The translations under genes and the position numbers were made by a program. Below the pieces are notes generated by a model that was given only the letters and a program-made list of their open reading frames with translations, was not told the DNA's origin and made no database searches. Below, piece by piece: positions 4,896 through 43,278 of a DNA stretch of 43,688 nt (its first letter is position 1; each line of letters begins with the position of its first letter). This DNA is from a virus (lineage: Duplodnaviria; Heunggongvirae; Uroviricota; Caudoviricetes). The stretch lies in the IMG/VR virus record IMGVR_UViG_2526164631_000038; one strand, written 5' to 3'.

Positions 4896-6091
4896 GACTC
4901 CACCGTTATAACGATATTTTCCGGGGTACAGGACGCAGATTCGTTGTATCTGATATCAATGTTTGATGACGACAAAGCCCCCGGAGATTTCCCAATCGTC
5001 AGTTCCTGAATATCGTAATAGCGTGCATTCCCGCCACTCACCACGCCAAGATTCGCCGGTGAGTAAATGCGACTTAAAAGGACCGAATCACCAATCATCA
5101 GACTATTGATATAGTCGGAAATAGCCTGCTGGATCTGCTGCCCTATCTGTGAGGTATAACCCGTAAAAACTTTTAATTTAATCCGGGCATAAACAGGCAC
5201 ATCACTGGAACGCGAGAATTTGATTACATGGGGATTGCCGTATTTATCCGGAACCGTAACGGATGTTGTACCGTGAGTGGCTGTCCCCTGGCCTTTATTC
5301 CCTCTGATAGCCTGAGCAATATCCATCACATCACCGCCATCCACAATTACAGCAACAGAGTGTGGCGGTAACCCGTTACCGTCCTCCGAACCAGTATCGT
5401 TTTCATAGAGTTTGTGGCGGGTTACACCGGTAACATTAGAAACAGCACCATCCAGTGCTTCAAATGGGGTTATTGATGGCAACGCAACACTTTGCGACTG
5501 GCGGATACGTAACTCCGCATCAGTTTCTGCCGGAGAGCCAACAGTAGCCGCAGCAGGATTAGTTACCGAAACCCAGCCACGGGTTGGCGTATTAATTTCA
5601 GTGATAGTTCCAGCCAGCGCCGCCACTGCACCACTGACGGAACATGTTGCGGTCGCCATCACTGTACCATCCACGCCGACCACCACTGAAGCAGGCAAAC
5701 GCCATATCACACTATTACTGTCTTTCACGCTGCCATTAATGATGGTTGTTCCGGCAGTTCCTGTAAGAAGCAAATCAACCGTAGAATTCGTCGCGCCTTT
5801 ACGTGAAATACCATTTATTTTCACGTTACTGGTCAGTGCGGCCCCATAGCCGGTTGCCGGTGAAAAACAGTTGTAGACAGTTATCGCAGTATTATTGGCA
5901 TCATGAATCGCCAGCGCCATCAGAGCCACCATCTGGCCGTCTTTACTATCCGGTTCGAGGTAGGCATCACTGCCATAAATCTGCTGAAAATAGCTAATCA
6001 GGGTGCTGAGTATCGTCTGATAATCAGGCGCACTGATCCCCTCCGCGGTTACCTTTGCAGATAAACCGAGAGAATCAAGGTTCAGAGCCAT
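4892..6091 (-). CDS. baseplate J-like protein (Mu gp47 / P2 gpJ family)
   Basis: 399-aa ORF with an N-terminus characteristic of Baseplate_J proteins as recalled; in conserved baseplate gene order. Confidence 0.7.
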   Translation of the reverse strand: MALNLDSLGLSAKVTAEGISAPDYQTILSTLISYFQQIYGSDAYLEPDSKDGQMVALMALAIHDANNTAITVYNCFSPATGYGAALTSNVKINGISRKGATNSTVDLLLTGTAGTTIINGSVKDSNSVIWRLPASVVVGVDGTVMATATCSVSGAVAALAGTITEINTPTRGWVSVTNPAAATVGSPAETDAELRIRQSQSVALPSITPFEALDGAVSNVTGVTRHKLYENDTGSEDGNGLPPHSVAVIVDGGDVMDIAQAIRGNKGQGTATHGTTSVTVPDKYGNPHVIKFSRSSDVPVYARIKLKVFTGYTSQIGQQIQQAISDYINSLMIGDSVLLSRIYSPANLGVVSGGNARYYDIQELTIGKSPGALSSSNIDIRYNESASCTPENIVITVES

Positions 6092-6444
6092 TACGCCTCC
6101 GATTTAACAGTCGTTATTCCATAGAGAGTGTCGATTTCAGCGGAAAACATGACACGTCGGGTCGTGGTATCCACCGTCGTATTGAAAGAGAGGATTGATT
6201 TAACGCCCCGCGTTTCGAGGATGCGCTTACGGATCGCCAGGTTGTAGGTTTCCGGCTTCTGCTTACCGAGCACAGACTGGATCCACGGGGTCCCTTCGGT
6301 GGTGTCGAGAAACCATTGCCCATACCACAATTCAAATCACGTTTTTACCGCCTGCGCCACGGCCTCCGGTGAGTTAATCAGCCAGGTGTCATCACCGCTG
6401 CCAAAGGTGTAATCGCCATCGGCGTCTTCACGTCTGTATCGCAT
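6091..6444 (-). pseudogene. small baseplate protein (Mu gp46-like) interrupted by an in-frame TGA
   Basis: ATG at 6444 overlaps the upstream stop (ATGA). Frame reads MRYRREDADGDYTFGSGDDTWLINSPEAVAQAVKT, then TGA at 6337..6339, then the same frame continues FELWYGQWFLDTTEGTPWIQSVLGKQ... to 6091. Confidence 0.6.
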
Positions 6445-24435: not shown

Positions 24436-24786
24436 TTACTCCTTATGGGCACCGAACTTGTTACCGATGACCCTCATTGCCGCACCACGAATAGCATCAA
24501 CACCAATCAGCCCCACCCCACCACCAATGGCAACAGAAAGTGATTTAGGCCATCCGACATACTCAAGCGCGGATGCAAAGGTCAGCGTCAGAGCACCACA
24601 AAGCAGAATCTCAAGCGTTTTTCGTTTCCAGCCGCCGCCACCGCCAAAATAGGCAATGCGCAAACCAGCCATAATAATTGACATAACCACTGCACCCAGC
24701 GGCGTATCTCCACGCCACCAACTTTGTAAGAGTTCCAGTAAGTCAGGCCAGGAATGAGGGGCATTGTGCATTTTCATAAGCCTCAC
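24436..24786 (-). CDS. holin
   Basis: 116 aa with two to three TM segments and a charged C-terminus; first gene of the lysis cassette; N-terminus MRLMKM offers three start codons. Confidence 0.6.
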   Translation of the reverse strand: MRLMKMHNAPHSWPDLLELLQSWWRGDTPLGAVVMSIIMAGLRIAYFGGGGGWKRKTLEILLCGALTLTFASALEYVGWPKSLSVAIGGGVGLIGVDAIRGAAMRVIGNKFGAHKE

Positions 24787-24873
24787 CTCCGAGAGTTCGG
24801 ATGGTGCTAAGTGTAAGATTCAGGCTCTCAGGCTTGCTAACAAGAAGTCGAGGATGTTTCCGGAGCCTAACAA

Positions 24874-24900
24874 CGAAAAAGCCCCGGGACATGCCGGGGC
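24874..24900 (-). terminator. rho-independent terminator between the cargo gene and the holin
   Basis: Minus-strand hairpin GCCCCGGCATGTCCCGGGGC followed by TTTTTCG. Confidence 0.5.
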
Positions 24901-24995
24901 CAGATGGAGTGCCAGATTAAGCTTCTGGCGGTATATACTCGTGTTTGATATCGTTAAATCGCCAAAAGTAACAATTCAAACAAAGAGGATTTTTA

Positions 24996-25156
24996 TGTCT
25001 GAAAAAAACAAGCCACAAGGTGAAAATAAACCTCAGCAACCCGTGGCACCAAAACCAACTCCAACACAAAGTACTGCGGACTTTGCTACACGTCGTGTTT
25101 TTGTTGGAGATTCTGCCGACTCAGTCATTGAACATATAAAAAAACAGCCGAGATAA
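24996..25156 (+). CDS. small hypothetical protein (53 aa)
   Basis: ATG at 24996 preceded by AGAGGA; MSEKNKPQGENKPQQPVAPKPTPTQS...; convergent with the membrane-protein gene and overlapping its 3' end. Confidence 0.3.
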
Positions 25157-25694
25157 ACATCGCCGCTACCGGAGCAAGGATGGTATACATCCTTGCTTTA
25201 TCGAGACTCGTGCGGATTTTCTCATTTTCCAACAGTAACTCTCTTGCTGTATCACTCAAGTCAACAAGGCGATACCTTCGTATAAGCGGCAATAACTTAT
25301 CAGGTCCTAAATATCCTGCATCAGCGAATATTTTAAAGCTCGAGGGCTCCATATCCTTATATTTTTCATGATATAGATGATCAGGAGGGGCATTGATCAG
25401 GCCCCTAACCTTCACAGATAAACCAGTACATACCAAGTAAATGGCGCACCATGTCCATAGTAATGTAAATGTGGTAATTCCGGCGGTGAGAAAATCGAAA
25501 TTAGTTTTCTGTGTCAGCAATAAAAAAGATGAGCCAATTCCAACAATCTGAATGTTCAGAAGTTTGTATCCATTCTCAACATTGGTTTTGTTAGAAAGAT
25601 GAATCTCTCGTATCGTCTCTTCCCCTTGTTTTTCAAGATAATCGACGAGCTCATCATCTACTCCTAAAAAATAATCTTTAGGTAGTTCTCTCAT
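25125..25694 (-). CDS. membrane protein of unknown function (cargo gene at the stx-equivalent position)
   Basis: 189 aa, strong GGAGGTGA Shine-Dalgarno, AT-rich; hydrophobic segments (IVGIGSSFLLLTQ, TFTLLWTWCAIYLVCTGL, ILAPVAAMFISAVFLYV); lies between tR' and the lysis genes. Confidence 0.65.
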   Translation of the reverse strand: MRELPKDYFLGVDDELVDYLEKQGEETIREIHLSNKTNVENGYKLLNIQIVGIGSSFLLLTQKTNFDFLTAGITTFTLLWTWCAIYLVCTGLSVKVRGLINAPPDHLYHEKYKDMEPSSFKIFADAGYLGPDKLLPLIRRYRLVDLSDTARELLLENEKIRTSLDKARMYTILAPVAAMFISAVFLYVQ

Positions 25695-25802
25695 CTCACC
25701 TCCACATCCTGTACTGAAAACAATTTTACCAGAATGTCTCGATTCTAGGTATTCCGCCAGGAATCGCGCTCCAGAAATGAAACATCAGGTTCGCCAGTAC
25801 CA

Positions 25803-25831
25803 GAAACAACAAAACCCGCTCAATGGCGGGT
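25803..25831 (-). terminator. tR'-like terminator downstream of Q
   Basis: Minus-strand hairpin ACCCGCCATTGAGCGGGT followed by TTTTGTTGTTTCTG, about 85 bp downstream of the Q stop. Confidence 0.5.
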
Positions 25832-25915
25832 TCTGGTAAAGTTCATGCGCTTGGTTCGCCTCGCGATACAGCTTTGCGAAGCATACCGGAATTGAAGCAG
25901 TTTATGCGTAAAAAA

Positions 25916-26458
25916 TCAAGCTATTTTTTGAGCAAATGATTCTCGCATGGGAATATATAGGGCATACTCAGCAACAGCCAACCAATTAGCAATTCGCTTT
26001 TCGCATGTGCTAAAACACCACTCAGGATGTGCATCATTTAGCAATTCAGCCATTTTGCGCTTAGTCATCCCCCGTCCTTCATACCGTTGCCGGAGGACAC
26101 TAATCAATCCAGGATGCTCTGCCAGCACCTCACTTATGACTCTATCAATACATAACGCCTCTGCATCAGTACAATGCGCCAGCCAGGTCTTTTGCTTGCC
26201 ATTGATCATCTCTCGCAAAAACGCTTCCAGCTCAGGTTTCTCTATTCCCGCTTTTTTCATCCTGCGCAGGGCTTCATTGACGGCTGTTTTCGTCAATTTT
26301 TTGGATGCCAGCAACTGGTTAAACATATTTCCCGTCTTACCGCCGCCAATATACGACCAGCGCCCCCACATGCGCAGTTTTCCCTGAATCCAGACACTTT
26401 CCAGCGTGGTGAGACGAAGGTGTTCCCCGCTTTTGCCTGTATTTGTTGGGTAAATCAT
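25916..26458 (-). CDS. late-gene antiterminator Q
   Basis: 180 aa from MIYPTNTGK (GGAAGG Shine-Dalgarno); positioned after ybcO/ybcN-like genes and before tR' and lysis genes. Confidence 0.6.
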   Translation of the reverse strand: MIYPTNTGKSGEHLRLTTLESVWIQGKLRMWGRWSYIGGGKTGNMFNQLLASKKLTKTAVNEALRRMKKAGIEKPELEAFLREMINGKQKTWLAHCTDAEALCIDRVISEVLAEHPGLISVLRQRYEGRGMTKRKMAELLNDAHPEWCFSTCEKRIANWLAVAEYALYIPMRESFAQKIA

Positions 26459-26745
26459 AAATAACCTTCCTTTCTCCAGATTTCTTGTGTGCGAAAAACA
26501 CCTTCTGCATACATCAGGCGTAATTCTTCTTTGGTGTAATCGCTGGTTTTTACCCGCCCGTCGATTAAATCGTGGCATGAGCTACAGGCAATCGCTGCCT
26601 GCATATCGTGTGGTTTTGTCGCTGTTCCGCACGTCCCCGCCAGCCTGTAATGCGCCAGCACAGAAGTTTCGGGATTGTGATTGCAGTAGCCAGGGATTCT
26701 GACCTGGCACATCTGGCCCCGCGCTGCTTTACGTAAACTCACCAT
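26455..26745 (-). CDS. YbcO-like protein with Cys cluster
   Basis: LRKAARGQMCQVRIPGYCNHNPETSVLAHYRL...IACSSCHDLID resembles DLP12 YbcO as recalled. Confidence 0.65.
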   Translation of the reverse strand: MVSLRKAARGQMCQVRIPGYCNHNPETSVLAHYRLAGTCGTATKPHDMQAAIACSSCHDLIDGRVKTSDYTKEELRLMYAEGVFRTQEIWRKEGYL

Positions 26746-27344
26746 TACGCAAACTCCAGTAGCTGCGCGGCCACATTTTCGACTTCCTCCGGAGAGGAAA
26801 ATTTACGGAACAGGATCCAGTTCCACAGCACATTCAGTACAGATTTATAAACCTGCTGAAACTCGGTTTCGTCCATGTTCGCAAATGCGATAGATTTTGC
26901 CCTGCGCCCGCGGCTACCGTCTGGATAAATATGCTCGGTGTAAAATCCGGCCTGAATGGTTACCCACTCGCGGAAAGCCTCAAACGACTTTAGCAATGCC
27001 GTATCCCGGGTTCTGCGTGTCGCAACTGTATTCAGATATTGCTCTGCGGCTTCGCTCAGAGCTGGCGTATGTTCCCGACCTACTGATTCGCACAGGTACT
27101 CAACGAAGCCTGATACCAGTTCTCGTTCTCGAGGCGTGATCACCCCACCGCTCGGAGTCCAGTAATCGAATCCCAGTTGCAGGAGTTTGAAAAAACGCTT
27201 GTGAAATGCGTAGTTACGCACACGCTTAAAGTCTGCGTGTATCCACTCACCTATTTTGATTTGATGCAAAAAATCGCAACTCTCCGGCGTCGCCGGGAGA
27301 AGTAATCCGGAAGAGGTTTGTTTGACCAGTTGTATATGCGCCAT
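26745..27344 (-). CDS. YbcN-like protein
   Basis: 199-aa ORF upstream of the ybcO-like gene, same order as DLP12 ybcN-ybcO-Q; similarity recalled, not searched. Confidence 0.55.
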   Translation of the reverse strand: MAHIQLVKQTSSGLLLPATPESCDFLHQIKIGEWIHADFKRVRNYAFHKRFFKLLQLGFDYWTPSGGVITPRERELVSGFVEYLCESVGREHTPALSEAAEQYLNTVATRRTRDTALLKSFEAFREWVTIQAGFYTEHIYPDGSRGRRAKSIAFANMDETEFQQVYKSVLNVLWNWILFRKFSSPEEVENVAAQLLEFA

Positions 27345-27905: not shown

Positions 27906-28061
27906 TTACTTCTCAGATTCGTAGTCCACGAAGACAGCAACCTCCGTCTGGCCGGTTCGGATTCGTACCTCGCAGAGGTCTTTCCTCGTTACCAGTGCCG
28001 TCACTATGACGGTTAAACAGATGACGATAAGGGCGATTAACATCGCCTTTTGCTGCTTCAT
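27906..28061 (-). CDS. hok: Hok/Gef-family membrane toxin
   Basis: 51 aa MKQQKAMLIALIVICLTVIVTALVTRKDLCEVRIRTGQTEVAVFVDYESEK, nearly identical to HokD/RelF as recalled. Confidence 0.85.
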   Translation of the reverse strand: MKQQKAMLIALIVICLTVIVTALVTRKDLCEVRIRTGQTEVAVFVDYESEK

Positions 28062-28618
28062 AGCCTGCTTCTCCTTGCCTTTCGGCACGTAAGAGGCTAA
28101 CCTACATTTGTGAGACATAGATTGGGCCTCAGATTAATGTTAAGCGTCTTGTAGGACGCGTAATGTTAACTGGGGCTTTTCTCTATCTGCCTTTTGGTGT
28201 TCATGCCTGAGGCAGATAGCCTCAAGCACCCGCAGCAATTCTAACTATCCAATAGATCAATGCCAACTTCTTTTCCTGCAACATCTCTCATCATAAGTGA
28301 CCAAAATTCATCCAATCAGCACAAAAGAAACATTTAAAGCGTGAATGCTACCGAACGTTCATTTCAATTACATCGTTTTGATTTTTAACAGTTTTTACCT
28401 CAACAAATCAAATGGCATTAGCATTCATCATGGAAGAAAGACTGATAAAAATGATCATTTTCAATGACTTATGATCACACCGGGTATTGCCAAGTCATTC
28501 CTTTTACGCCAGGATACCCACAAGTGAGTAGTCGAGGAGAGTTTGCCAATTTTTGCGATATAAATTTCAATGTCCGAAGAACCATTAATTGTTAATTGAT
28601 TCTGTATAAGGTATTAAC

Positions 28619-29716
28619 ATGACAATTTCATATATTCCTATTCTGAAAGCGAAACGTTCTGAGTTATCAGCTTTATCGCAGCTATCCATTGAAAAGAAAT
28701 CAAAAATTTTGCCATTACTCGAAATTGAACCAGTGCCAATTGACCCTGATTCAGGTATTGCCTTAAAGAGTTATAACGAGACTCTTATAGAGTTCGGAAA
28801 GAAAGTCTCAAAATCTTGCTCAGATATGCAAGGTGTTTATATTGATGGATTATTAATTGAAGAGCATTTTATTTCTCCTGAAGATCATTACCCTATAATA
28901 AATGCGGTTAATCAAGTTAGAGATATGGGGATAAGAGTTATTCCTGTCAGTTCACCAACTCGCCCATCTAACTATAAAGGAGCGATTGATGAATTAATGC
29001 AGAATGAAATATGCTTGAGATTAACCACGTTAGATCTGGTTAACCCACAATTAATAACGCATTACATTAATCATCTGGGAATTCCTTTATCAAATATTGA
29101 TATAATTATTGACTTAAGAGATGAGTTAACCGAGGATAAACTTAATTCCGGCGAACTATATACTTTGGCAATGGGATTGATAAACAATCTGGCGCACCTC
29201 AATGAATACAGAAAAGTGATTCTTTCTGGGGGTTCATTTCCTACAGATCTCAGTGATATTTCTGTTGGTCTATATTCTCAACCTCGAATCGAGTGGATTT
29301 TATGGCAGAGTTTAATGAATAGAAAAGAACTTGCCAGAAATGTGATTTATAGTGATTATGGAGTACAGCACCCCGACTTTAATAGGCTTTCGACGCGATT
29401 CCCTAGCGTATCTGCCAGCGTCAGATACTCTGGAGATAATGACTTTTGGGTATTTCGAGGAAGAGTAGCTAATCGCTTTGGTTATGAACAATATGGTAAA
29501 CATAGTGAGGATATTCTTGCTCATCGAGAATATTCAGGGCCTACATTCTGTGCGGGAGATAGAGACATAGAATATTATGCAAACGAGTATCAAGCCTACA
29601 AAGCCAATCCCTCTGGTAACTATAAATTTGGTAGCCCAGAGGTATGGCGTAGGATTGGGCAAAACCATCACATAACTAAGGTTGTTGAGCAACTCGCCAC
29701 TCTTTACGGGCTTTAA
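28619..29716 (+). CDS. uncharacterised 365-aa protein, Beta-protein / sce7725-like; first gene of a candidate defence pair
   Basis: Translation MTISYIPILKAKRSELSAL... recalled as the N-terminal signature of the Beta_protein / sce7725 family (recalled, uncertain); AT-rich; 500-bp leader; 3' end overlaps the convergent partner. Confidence 0.75.
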   Translation: MTISYIPILKAKRSELSALSQLSIEKKSKILPLLEIEPVPIDPDSGIALKSYNETLIEFGKKVSKSCSDMQGVYIDGLLIEEHFISPEDHYPIINAVNQVRDMGIRVIPVSSPTRPSNYKGAIDELMQNEICLRLTTLDLVNPQLITHYINHLGIPLSNIDIIIDLRDELTEDKLNSGELYTLAMGLINNLAHLNEYRKVILSGGSFPTDLSDISVGLYSQPRIEWILWQSLMNRKELARNVIYSDYGVQHPDFNRLSTRFPSVSASVRYSGDNDFWVFRGRVANRFGYEQYGKHSEDILAHREYSGPTFCAGDRDIEYYANEYQAYKANPSGNYKFGSPEVWRRIGQNHHITKVVEQLATLYGL

Positions 29717-30254
29717 GTTTAACTCGAACAGCTTCACGAAGCTCGCCAACATCCATACTATTGGCGAGTTTTGACCATAAGACGCGTTTAGGTTTATTTT
29801 TCAAATTCTGTAGCTCCCCTACATCACTTAATAGGGAAAGCAATTCATCTTTCCAAAGAAGCATTGTTAAGGAAAGTTTGTCCACTTGTGGATTCAACTT
29901 GCTAGTTCGAATTGTTTTTAAATGGATACCTTGCCGTGCACCTTGCGTAACTTGCTTTATCCCCCACCATGATGGAACTATGCTTAAAGCATCATAAAGA
30001 TGGCAATCAGAGACAACCAACGTTACTTTATCCATCACTGATGAGTAATGTTGCACCTGCGCTGGTAATCTGAGCAAGTTATCACTTTTGCTCTTCAACT
30101 CATAACCATGTATAAGCCCATTGATCACTGCTATATCAGCTCTGCTAGCCCCCAGATTCATCGTAAACTCATCAATGATTAGGGTGTCAGGATCTTTATG
30201 ATGATCTCTCAAAATCTTGGCATGCACAGCCTTTCTTACATCAATGTCTCTCAT
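29676..30254 (-). CDS. uncharacterised 192-aa protein, sce7726-like with PD-(D/E)xK-like motif; second gene of the candidate defence pair
   Basis: LIIDEFTMNLGASRADIAVINGLIHGYELKSKSD has the D...(D/E)xK arrangement of restriction-endonuclease-fold nucleases; convergent with and overlapping the Beta-like gene. Confidence 0.75.
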   Translation of the reverse strand: MRDIDVRKAVHAKILRDHHKDPDTLIIDEFTMNLGASRADIAVINGLIHGYELKSKSDNLLRLPAQVQHYSSVMDKVTLVVSDCHLYDALSIVPSWWGIKQVTQGARQGIHLKTIRTSKLNPQVDKLSLTMLLWKDELLSLLSDVGELQNLKNKPKRVLWSKLANSMDVGELREAVRVKLKARKEWRVAQQP

Positions 30255-35642: not shown

Positions 35643-36037
35643 CGGAATACCTTATTACTGGTTGTGTGAGAACTCCAGTATACCACCGAGCCTGAAGTGG
35701 TAAAAAGACAGGCGCACAACACGAAGGCGCATTTCCGGTATTCATAAAGAGTCGGTCTTGTCTGTTAAATTTAAATGGTGGGAGTGCGCCTCCGGTTGTA
35801 AATAACGACATTGCTATGTGTAGTCTTTGGCGGCATCAGTTCTACTCCGTGGCTGCCCTGTCGCCCCTTTTTAAAGTGAATTTTGTGATGCGGTGAATGC
35901 GGCTAAGCGCACGCGGCACAGTTAAAAGCATCAGTGTTATGGGTGGATTATCCGGCGTTAATTGTTAACTGGTTAACGTCACCTGGAGGCACCAGGCACC
36001 GCATCGACAAAATTCATTTGTAAAAATGGAGATAATT

Positions 36038-41149: not shown

Positions 41150-41344
41150 ATGCGGTATGAAAAAGTCAAACCATGTCCGTTTTGTGGTTGTCCATCAGTA
41201 ACGGTGAAAGCCATTTCAGGATATTACCGCGCAAAGTGTAACGGATGCGAATCCCGAACCGGCTATAGTGGAAGTGAAAAAGAAGCACTCGAAAGATGGA
41301 ATAAACGAACTACTGGAAATAATAATGGAGGTGTTCATGTATAA
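41150..41344 (+). CDS. lar: Lar-family restriction alleviation protein
   Basis: 64 aa from MRYEKVKPCPFCGCP...CNGCESR, a zinc-ribbon of the Lar/RalR type; Rac-like position. Confidence 0.65.
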   Translation: MRYEKVKPCPFCGCPSVTVKAISGYYRAKCNGCESRTGYSGSEKEALERWNKRTTGNNNGGVHV

Positions 41345-41525
41345 AATTACTGCCACTATTGAAAAGGAAGGTGGCACTCCTACTAACTGGACAAGATATT
41401 CAAAATCTAAATTAACGAAATCAGAATGCGAAAAAATGCTCTCAGGGAAAAAAGAAGCAGGCGTTTCCAGAGAGCAGAAAGTAAAGCTGATAAATTTTAA
41501 TTGCGAGAAACTTCTGTCCTCGTGA
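41337..41525 (+). CDS. small hypothetical protein (62 aa)
   Basis: ATG preceded by GGAGG; between lar and xis. Confidence 0.4.
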   Translation: MYKITATIEKEGGTPTNWTRYSKSKLTKSECEKMLSGKKEAGVSREQKVKLINFNCEKLLSS

Positions 41526-43075: not shown

Positions 43076-43086
43076 TAAATACAATT

Positions 43087-43188
43087 AAAAAAGACCGAAT
43101 ACGATTCCTGTATTCGGTCCAGGGAAATGGCTCTTGGGAGAGAGCCGTGCGCTAAAAGTTGGCATTAATGCAGGCTTAGTTGCCTTGC
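43087..43188 (-). ncRNA. sdsR: SdsR (RyeB) small RNA
   Basis: Minus-strand sequence GCAAGGCAACTAAGCCTGCATTAATGCCAACTTTTAGCGCACGGCTCTCTCCCAAGAGCCATTTCCCTGGACCGAATACAGGAATCGTATTCGGTCTTTTTT matches SdsR as recalled, including the terminator hairpin; CTATTCT -10 just upstream. Confidence 0.85.
43093..43117. repeat. attR: right copy of the attachment-site repeat, forming the present 3' end of sdsR
   Basis: GACCGAATACGATTCCTGTATTCG matches the attL copy at 1075..1098 with two mismatches. Confidence 0.75.
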
Positions 43189-43278
43189 CCTTTAAGAATA
43201 GATGACGACGCCAGGTTTTCCAGTTTGCGTGCAAAATGGTCAATAAAAAGCGTGGTGGTCATCAGCTGAAATGTTAAA

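Follow-up and report, generated by a model that had tools for sequence, protein, structure and literature searches.

What occupies the space between the late-gene antiterminator and the holin of the prophage recorded as IMGVR_UViG_2526164631_000038, and is it one gene or two? The window analyzed here is the whole 43,688-nucleotide stretch of that record. A first-pass annotation, made from its letters, had pointed to a gene for a 189-aa multi-helix membrane protein at the position that Shiga toxin (Stx) holds in Stx phages. It placed a hairpin resembling the terminator tR' before the gene and the gene's own terminator after it, and it treated a convergent 53-aa open reading frame (ORF) overlapping the 3′ end as incidental. 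Every feature in that description is confirmed, with small shifts in coordinates; the small ORF is where we depart from its interpretation. Judged by its conservation, the 53-aa ORF is a co-conserved partner of the membrane-protein gene and the functional unit is the pair. Judged by where matches to other phages end, the segment from ∼24818 to 25800 is a self-contained two-gene cargo cassette, or moron, between the tR' of the Q module and the holin gene. The features of the cassette and its borders are as follows.

24880-24901, minus strand: late-strand intrinsic terminator at the downstream end of the cassette (terminator scan; fold z about −3)
24911-24929, no strand assigned: second stem-loop, GCCAGA-N7-TCTGGC, with the late-strand terminator on one side and the small gene's conserved upstream block on the other
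24944-24974, plus strand: conserved non-coding block cTGATATCGTTAAATCGCCAAAAGTAAC, ∼30 nt upstream of the small gene; candidate promoter or leader
24995-25156, plus strand: small gene, convergent with the large gene, for a basic, Pro/Gln/Lys-rich peptide of 53 aa (phrog_14506, 6e-33)
25125-25694, minus strand: large gene, for a three-helix inner-membrane protein of 189 aa (ORF and hydropathy; phrog_11870)
25171-25199, plus strand: 11-bp stem-loop, 15 nt past the small-gene stop and inside the large coding sequence
25723-25731, minus strand: extended −10-like element TGgTAAAAT, 34 nt upstream of the large-gene ATG; candidate promoter of the large gene
25810-25835, minus strand: tR'-like intrinsic terminator hairpin after the Q-like gene (terminator scan; −16.2 kcal/mol, z −3.1)

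The evidence that carries the pairing comes from the relatives of the cassette. Downstream sequence was available for 47 distinct homologous loci, and 46 of them contain a convergent small ORF with an ATG start and a ribosome-binding site (RBS) that terminates within the 3′ end of the large gene. The two genes share 32 nt in the window; among the loci they overlap by 20, 23, 26, 32, or 35 nt in 43 cases, by 50 nt in locus L019, and by 73 nt in locus L026, and the small ORF always lies in the same relative frame. The encoded peptides are 47 to 56 aa long in 43 of the 46, and shorter versions of 26 to 30 aa are found in L019, L086, and L094. Pairing holds even where the large protein is only 28 to 35% identical to that of the window, provided that downstream sequence is available. 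At L110 (28% identity) a convergent ORF of 45 aa is present. At L019 (32% identity) the pair follows a tape-measure gene and lies among other cargo, including a helix-turn-helix/ParE pair. At L112 (30% identity) the pair occupies positions 5001-5673, next to the repressor gene cI (5689-6402). The small gene follows cI at a distance of 16 nt and shares its strand, in the position that rex has in lambda, and the large gene is convergent with it; this arrangement suggests that the small gene is cotranscribed with cI in lysogens. A further large-gene homolog, L022, follows a VapE-type primase at a contig end. Compared in this way, the loci show that the two genes are passed on as a pair, both across Enterobacterales and in different prophage cargo slots.

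Variation within E. coli was also seen. Seven of 60 sampled E. coli match rows (H74-H80) align over 920 nt instead of 921 and carry one annotated gene only. In H74 (locus L114) a 1-nt deletion at 25145, inside the 32-nt overlap, changes both C termini: the large protein becomes 190 aa, and the small protein is extended and no longer annotated by the Prokaryotic Genome Annotation Pipeline (PGAP). Because both C termini are altered at once, this deletion is uninformative on the dispensability of either gene.

The small gene has the properties of a genuine coding sequence. Its RBS, AGAGGA at 24984-24989, is 6 nt upstream of the ATG, and the C-terminal motif of its peptide, F..xR-VFVGDSAD in the window, recurs across the loci as F..x-R-[VIM]-[FLIM]-V-G-[DN]-S-A-[DE] behind a Pro/Gln/Lys-rich N-terminal half. 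Outside the overlap with the large gene, the uncorrected ratio of nonsynonymous to synonymous differences (pN/pS) is 0.1 to 0.7, with pS saturated at 0.4 to 1.0, and third-position changes are twice as frequent as those at first and second positions. By these two measures, the small gene is under purifying selection. Both PGAP and phrog_14506 give a longer version of the protein (71 aa, 24941-25156) with a non-ATG start. The start at ATG 24995, giving 53 aa, is the better supported one, since it is preceded by a Shine-Dalgarno (SD) sequence and opens a conserved MS(E/Q)xNKP N terminus, while the upstream extension is not conserved.

Around this coding sequence lie conserved signals that together span 24944-25199, entirely between the large-gene start and the late-strand terminator. 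The upstream block cTGATATCGTTAAATCGCCAAAAGTAAC is nearly invariant in 39 distinct upstream sequences, including those of loci whose large proteins are down to 48% identical. Within it, TGaTATCGT (24946-24954) could serve as an extended −10-like element of the small gene, and a consensus promoter scan made no call at the block. A peptide ORF on the late strand (24917-25069) that would be encoded by the same block was considered and rejected: it starts with TTG, is the hydrophobic antisense of the Pro/Gln/Lys-rich frame, and is not kept across relatives. The stem-loop at 24911-24929 is present in most relatives, with the compensatory variants GCCGC/GCGGC and GCCAGT/ACTGGC. No Rfam family was matched between 24300 and 26300.

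The 11-bp stem-loop at 25171-25199 has a free energy of −18.6 kcal/mol (z −3.1). Across 35 distinct sequences, 96.1% of its cells are paired, and double changes of the compensatory kind occur at four pairs (39 cells). None of 500 shuffles reached its score, and sliding the 3′ partner by 1 to 3 columns as a control lowered pairing to 46 to 55%. The plus strand contains 67 G-U cells, and pairing on the minus strand reaches only 79.2%, which indicates that the structure is selected in the RNA of the small gene and not in the large mRNA. Since the U-tract that follows the stem is weak in many relatives, the element may be either a terminator or a 3′-end stabilizer of the small transcript. The small unit is fully complementary to the 3′ part of the large-gene transcript. 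Given this complementarity and a stem-loop specific to one strand, an additional RNA-level role of the small gene is possible. The position of the late-strand terminator beyond the small gene and its upstream block also means that minus-strand transcripts, whether of the large gene or of the Q-antiterminated late operon, must traverse the whole small unit.

The large gene is as the first-pass annotation had it, with a strong SD sequence (GGAGG at 25699-25703, 5 nt before the ATG) and a multi-helix membrane product. Its hydrophobic segments cover residues 46-62, 70-92, and 169-189. The charge distribution suggests that the N-terminal 45 residues, which are acidic, and residues 93-168, which contain 14 Lys/Arg, are cytoplasmic. 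An AlphaFold2 model built on 41 homologs has a mean predicted local distance difference test score of 81.7 and consists of long helices at residues 14-62, 68-92, and 134-188. The protein matches phrog_11870 (6e-108), which PHROGs annotates as unknown function.

The first-pass annotation took expression of this gene to follow Q antitermination. Expression need not be purely Q-dependent. The sequence TAAAAT or TAAGAT is found at −34 to −41 of the large gene in ∼36 of 43 distinct upstream sequences, that of the remote L019 included, between the tR'-like hairpin and the start codon, and some relatives lie outside a late operon altogether. No convincing −35 element was found upstream of the large gene, and the consensus scan called no promoter there. 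Conservation of the −10-like element makes expression from an own promoter plausible in most family members. In loci L006 and L007 the large gene begins ∼30 nt past the upstream terminator and the element is absent, so that Q read-through is the only evident route in these few relatives.

That the cassette is cargo follows from a comparison of its edges. Partial DNA matches in other phages end at ∼24818 on the holin side and at ∼25800 on the Q side, and the segment 25799-26000 is 91 to 93% identical in phages without the cassette. A phage with the same Q module has genes for tRNA-Thr and tRNA-Gly in the slot instead. The insertion therefore separates genes that are adjacent, or differently filled in, in relatives, and it has its own terminator and a deviant base composition (G+C 0.35 to 0.44 over 24900-25700, as against ∼0.48 to 0.55 in the flanks), in keeping with the AT-rich block described earlier. 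It also lies in late orientation between Q/tR' and the lysis genes, as expected of late-operon cargo. Because the partial matches stop at ∼24818 and ∼25800, the tR'-like hairpin is, on this reading of the edges, part of the Q module and not of the cassette, and the downstream terminator is part of the insert. Both terminators of the first-pass annotation were recovered with slightly different limits (it had placed them at 25803-25831 and 24874-24900). The downstream one consists of an 8-bp stem, seven of whose pairs are G-C, with a TTTTT tract behind it. Taken alone, the presence of two terminator-like sites within 1.7 kb is not above chance (1.6 ± 1.2 in shuffled sequence). Among the 47 loci, the upstream terminator is kept in 38 and a downstream terminator, 215 to 250 nt past the large-gene stop, in 34.

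A survey of neighbors in 49 distinct loci, made with a limited BLAST panel, agrees with the placement in a Q-to-holin slot. With this panel, co-oriented Q genes of three unrelated families (DUF1133, PF06530, and PF03589) were recognized upstream in 27 of these loci, and co-oriented lysis genes of several types downstream in 33. The lysis partners include lambda-S-type, class II-type, and other holins and GH104, PF00959, and GH19 lysins. The cassette is present at ≥99% identity in ∼225 of 5426 complete E. coli genomes (∼4%), with 223 matches covering at least 80% of its length, and it occurs widely in this species, in commensal as well as clinical strains and from many hosts. Carrier strains include E. 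coli O55:H7 DEC5E and FDAARGOS_1059. PGAP calls both of its ORFs hypothetical proteins in E. coli genomes. Homologs at 45 to 75% identity are found in Klebsiella, Citrobacter, Serratia, Morganella, Providencia, Proteus, Yersinia, Pantoea, Sodalis, and Salmonella. The homologs of the large protein form 104 clusters, nearly all of exactly 189 aa and all hypothetical or unnamed. An exhaustive HMMER scan of 1.84 billion representative proteins returned 54 clusters only, and the family is thus small; a second large search, its profile widened to remote members, brought in no annotated relatives. The family was seen only in phage, satellite, and phage-plasmid contexts. Two records stand somewhat apart. 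L116 (PP818812.1, “Actinobacillus phage vB_Apl-pPE4”, 47.5 kb) contains an enterobacterial DUF1367-YbcO-Q module together with the cassette at 53% protein identity, and a 47.7-kb E. coli plasmid (CP100067.1) has a large-gene homolog at the same 53% identity, which suggests either a phage-plasmid or a host mis-assignment.

Neither protein could be tied to a described family. No model of Pfam, NCBIfam, or PADLOC was matched by either cassette protein, and the sole family matches were phrog_11870 and phrog_14506, both of which are function-unknown. PADLOC 2.0 gave no match at E up to 1 for either protein, membrane effectors such as the 2TM and SLATT types included. SLATT, DUF4231, and the other Pfam families were matched neither by the window protein nor by six remote relatives, and a profile search against PDB sequences found no related solved structure, the best hit (GpsB, E 0.097) being noise; nor was a fold match obtained for either protein. 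In BLASTP comparisons with TaiEcA and AtiEcA of phage phi80 the large proteins aligned at E = 7.4 and the small ones gave no alignment; tblastn with the large protein did not find phi80. Hhalign gave probabilities of 0.1% against lambda SieB and 1% against RexB, and PF14163 was not matched. The literature search found no paper that contains the protein accession and none on the gene pair, with which the accessions WP_001208722 and WP_071779784 are associated; the screen of Brenes & Laub 2025 (Cell Host Microbe 33:1004) falls outside that scope. As far as these searches reach, both proteins are orphans whose families are already in PHROGs as unknowns.

What, then, might the pair do? The first-pass annotation had proposed superinfection exclusion, abortive infection, or a membrane-acting effector for the large protein, and such a function is plausible. 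Homology to a conserved lysis accessory protein, which that annotation had named as the finding that would count against its proposal, was not detected in the lysis families of Pfam and PHROGs or in any other known family. The reading that we favor, tentatively, is that the cassette is a conflict module of the toxin-antidote or exclusion type, in which a membrane effector is restrained by an antisense partner and boosted by Q read-through. In such a scheme the large protein would act on the cell envelope or the membrane potential and would be harmful if unrestrained. In a lysogen, its own weak promoter or leakage through tR' would supply no more than small amounts of it. Restraint by the convergent partner would come from pairing with its antisense RNA and from colliding transcription, with the conserved peptide probably contributing too. 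Upon induction, Q-modified polymerase would pass tR', flood the cassette from the large-gene side, and override the small gene. The likely role would be in phage-phage or phage-host conflict, as abortive infection or exclusion exerted in a toxin-antidote manner. We arrive at this reading because a membrane gene, a complementary convergent unit, a conserved peptide, bracketing terminators, and a placement in a Q operon or beside cI occur together. The rex position of L112, the tape-measure cargo of L019, and the VapE-type primase next to L022 were counted in its favor as contexts typical of conflict genes. There is also a precedent in phi80 Tai/Ati, where a gene antisense in a Q-dependent late operon is active during lysogeny and has its expression lowered by Q (PMC11364771).

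Several observations weigh against a conflict module. Toxicity, defence, or any other phenotype has no experimental or annotation support. At 189 aa the protein is far larger than classic type I toxins, and its partner is protein-coding, unlike classic RNA antitoxins. Both cassette promoters are candidates drawn from conservation, neither was called by the consensus scan, and L006 and L007 leave the large gene no room for its own promoter after the terminator. Finally, a Salmonella enterica clade represented by L024 (5001-6636; cluster P0068, 88 member sequences) does not have the small ORF. Its large gene is intact at 192 aa but has a replaced 3′ end, followed 11 nt past the stop by a co-directional ORF of 348 aa that is not called as a gene in the source record and has no PADLOC match. 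The small partner is thus not strictly indispensable. This variant may represent a natural partner swap. A bolder version of the conflict reading is that the cassette belongs to an undescribed class of prophage modules. There, a dual-function convergent gene, acting as both antisense RNA and peptide, would gate a three-helix membrane effector, and the dominant direction of transcription would flip the module between a lysogenic and a lytic state. A promoter of the cI/pRM type, or one belonging to the small gene, would set that direction from one side, and Q-antiterminated late read-through from the other. We regard this version as doubtful.

Other explanations were weighed against the same observations. 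In a refinement of the first-pass model, the cassette could be an accessory of the lytic phase, expressed essentially by Q read-through alone, that blocks superinfection or re-adsorption or conditions the envelope, with the small gene merely a silencer in lysogeny. In its favor, most loci do lie within the late operon and in its orientation, after Q/tR' and ahead of the lysis genes; L006 and L007 leave no room for another promoter; and the position of the late-strand terminator forces late transcription across the small gene. Three things speak against it: the −10-like element conserved downstream of tR' in most relatives, the relatives outside the late operon (beside cI or in a satellite-like element), and the selection on the small peptide itself, which a pure silencer RNA would not need. 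We consider it rather unlikely. Should the protein instead modulate lysis timing, as an antiholin-like factor or holin modulator of the adjacent cassette, its position as a small multi-helix membrane protein directly upstream of the holin and transcribed in the same direction would be natural. Against this, it accompanies no fewer than three distinct types of holin and endolysin, occurs as well in places far removed from lysis genes, and matches no lysis family in Pfam or PHROGs. In addition, the lambda-type holin of the window already begins with a Met-Lys-Met double start, the feature that gives lambda S its antiholin form. A lysis-timing accessory is accordingly the least probable of the explanations considered.

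A defence and self-immunity pair of the Tai/Ati kind would assign the roles the other way round: the small protein would be the lysogen-expressed effector, and the membrane protein the counter-measure that protects the phage's own lytic cycle. The architecture is the same in principle, with one gene antisense in a Q-dependent operon and its partner in sense orientation (PMC11364771), and the small gene of L112, being apparently cotranscribed with cI, would be expressed in lysogens. Against it, sequence similarity to Tai or Ati is missing, and the phi80 genes are divergent with a 5′ overlap, not convergent with a 3′ overlap. A largely low-complexity peptide of ∼50 aa is an unlikely stand-alone defence effector, and conservation points to a candidate promoter for the membrane-protein gene itself. 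Such a pair appears improbable. We give a similarly small chance to a lysogenic-conversion factor whose benefit to the host has nothing to do with phages and lies, for instance, in stress tolerance, envelope physiology, or colonization, with the small gene as its regulator. The layout is that of a classic moron at a slot that elsewhere holds Stx and other host-acting genes, and the wide occurrence of the cassette in commensal and clinical E. coli of many hosts would fit. However, no hint of an enzymatic, transport, or virulence function was seen in either protein, the family is confined to phage, satellite, and phage-plasmid contexts, and it recurs in slots typical of phage-conflict genes.

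Comparison with characterized systems places the pair more precisely, and we rate it as a moron or a conflict-type two-gene module. Morons as defined by Hendrix include lambda bor and lom and HK97 gp15, the last of which is, like the large cassette protein, a small inner-membrane protein. The cassette shares with them the form of an extra transcription unit between genes that are neighbors in relatives, with a deviant composition and its own terminator. It differs in being a convergent pair whose 3′ ends overlap and in which the coding sequence of one partner contains an RNA stem-loop, and in having no sequence relationship to any characterized moron product. Type I toxin-antitoxin loci with convergent, 3′-overlapping transcripts, such as bsrG/SR4, txpA/RatA, and par fst/RNA II, also combine a membrane protein gene with a short convergent unit whose RNA is the complement of the 3′ portion of the mRNA. 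Such loci frequently reside in prophages, their toxins are smaller than 60 aa, and their antitoxins are non-coding RNAs. In contrast, the cassette encodes a protein of 189 aa with large cytoplasmic helical parts, which is not a small toxin, and its partner is a peptide gene with an SD sequence, an ATG, a motif, and purifying selection, which is not a non-coding RNA. Lambda RexAB and SieB resemble the large protein as prophage membrane proteins of similar size, the L112 pair occupies the rex position beside cI, and lambda sieB is also antisense within an operon. The topology and the partner differ from both, however, and the hhalign probability does not exceed 1%.

The Stx locus shares the slot, which follows Q, pR', and tR' and precedes the holin, as well as the orientation with the late operon; tRNA genes, as found in this slot in a relative with the same Q module, also occur there in many Stx phages. 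Unlike Stx, which is a secreted AB5 toxin, the cassette consists of a membrane protein and an antisense small gene, has candidate promoters of its own, and is presumed to be expressed in dependence on Q. Some Stx phages have a Q of the DUF1133 type (PMC8136144). With TaiEcA/AtiEcA of phi80 the cassette has in common that it is a pair of prophage cargo genes, one of which is antisense in a Q-controlled late operon, where in phi80 Q-driven transcription turns the antisense member down (PMC11364771). The two are not homologous. The phi80 pair is divergent, overlaps at its 5′ ends, and lies between the lysis and packaging genes, and its antisense, lysogen-expressed member is the large protein, whereas in the cassette the antisense member is the small one.

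The surrounding prophage is complete at ∼42 kb, has a Rac-like early region, and is flanked by pphA/yebW and yebY/ryeA-ryeB. It is 98.6% identical to a prophage of E. coli O55:H7 DEC5E. The host phage of the cassette is a lambdoid, Rac-type E. coli prophage. On the minus strand, its late genes run from DUF1367 through a YbcO-type nuclease and the Q-like gene to the cassette region and a lambda-family holin, and the operon continues with a GH104 lysozyme, an Rz-like gene, and the small and large terminase subunits. The immediate neighbors are as follows.

26745-27344, minus strand: DUF1367 gene (late-region context)
26455-26745, minus strand: YbcO-type nuclease gene (late-region context)
25916-26458, minus strand: Q-like late-gene antiterminator, DUF1133 (PF06576 5e-109; PF06530 weak; phrog_753; PGAP coordinates)
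24436-24777, minus strand: lambda-family holin, first gene of the lysis cassette (PF05106 2e-27; phrog_126; PGAP coordinates)

The label of phrog_753, which the DUF1133 gene product matches, is anti-termination protein Q-like. For 13 Stx phages, a DUF1133 protein assigned by HHpred is listed as Q antiterminator (PMC8136144), which makes the analogy with the Stx position apt. A program-made ORF extends the Q-like gene to 25916-26578 on the minus strand (220 aa), whereas PGAP starts it at 26458. Because the DUF1133 match begins at residue 41 of the longer ORF and PGAP places the start at 26458, the real protein is probably 180 aa, with a start that overlaps the YbcO stop codon. A consensus scan found a single promoter-like site on the late strand, TTGGCT-N18-TATATT at 25952-25981 (9/12 matches), within the 3′ end of the Q-like gene and ∼120 nt upstream of the tR'-like hairpin. 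This site is a candidate pR'; TTGATT-N17-TTCAAT, directly past the Q stop codon, is an alternative candidate. When sigma-70 promoters were sought by eye for pR' and the two cassette genes, conserved −10-like elements were all that held up.

Other regulatory and defence loci were noted in the same window. Rfam matches are sok (with hokD), DicF, RalA (with ralR), SraC/RyeA, and SdsR/RyeB, at 27906-28231, 35815-35866, 41155-41521, and 43083-43226, with SraC/RyeA and SdsR/RyeB in the chromosomal flank. From sok/hokD and RalA/ralR it follows that the prophage already holds two classical type I toxin-antitoxin loci. A second convergent, overlapping gene pair, 28619-29716 on the plus strand and 29676-30254 on the minus strand, lies between the replication genes and hokD. 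Its 365-aa protein matches the PADLOC model PD-Lambda-2_C (2.8e-41) and also the “beta” model, its 192-aa protein matches the PADLOC model “cll” (2.4e-28), and PGAP names the two “beta family” and “sce7726 family” proteins. These matches make the pair, which the same prophage carries, a candidate defence system resembling gop-beta-cII or PD-lambda-2.

Shiga toxin and other cargo coupled to induction are carried in the interval from Q to the lysis genes, and the cassette described here adds to this slot a pair of genes that are hypothetical in every database. Recognizing them as one conserved unit links two anonymous ORFs. If the pair is indeed a toxin-antidote or exclusion module switched by late transcription, it would introduce a new membrane effector family in prophage-encoded immunity. 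It would also be a second independent case, after phi80 Tai/Ati, in which antisense placement in a late operon separates lysogenic from lytic expression.

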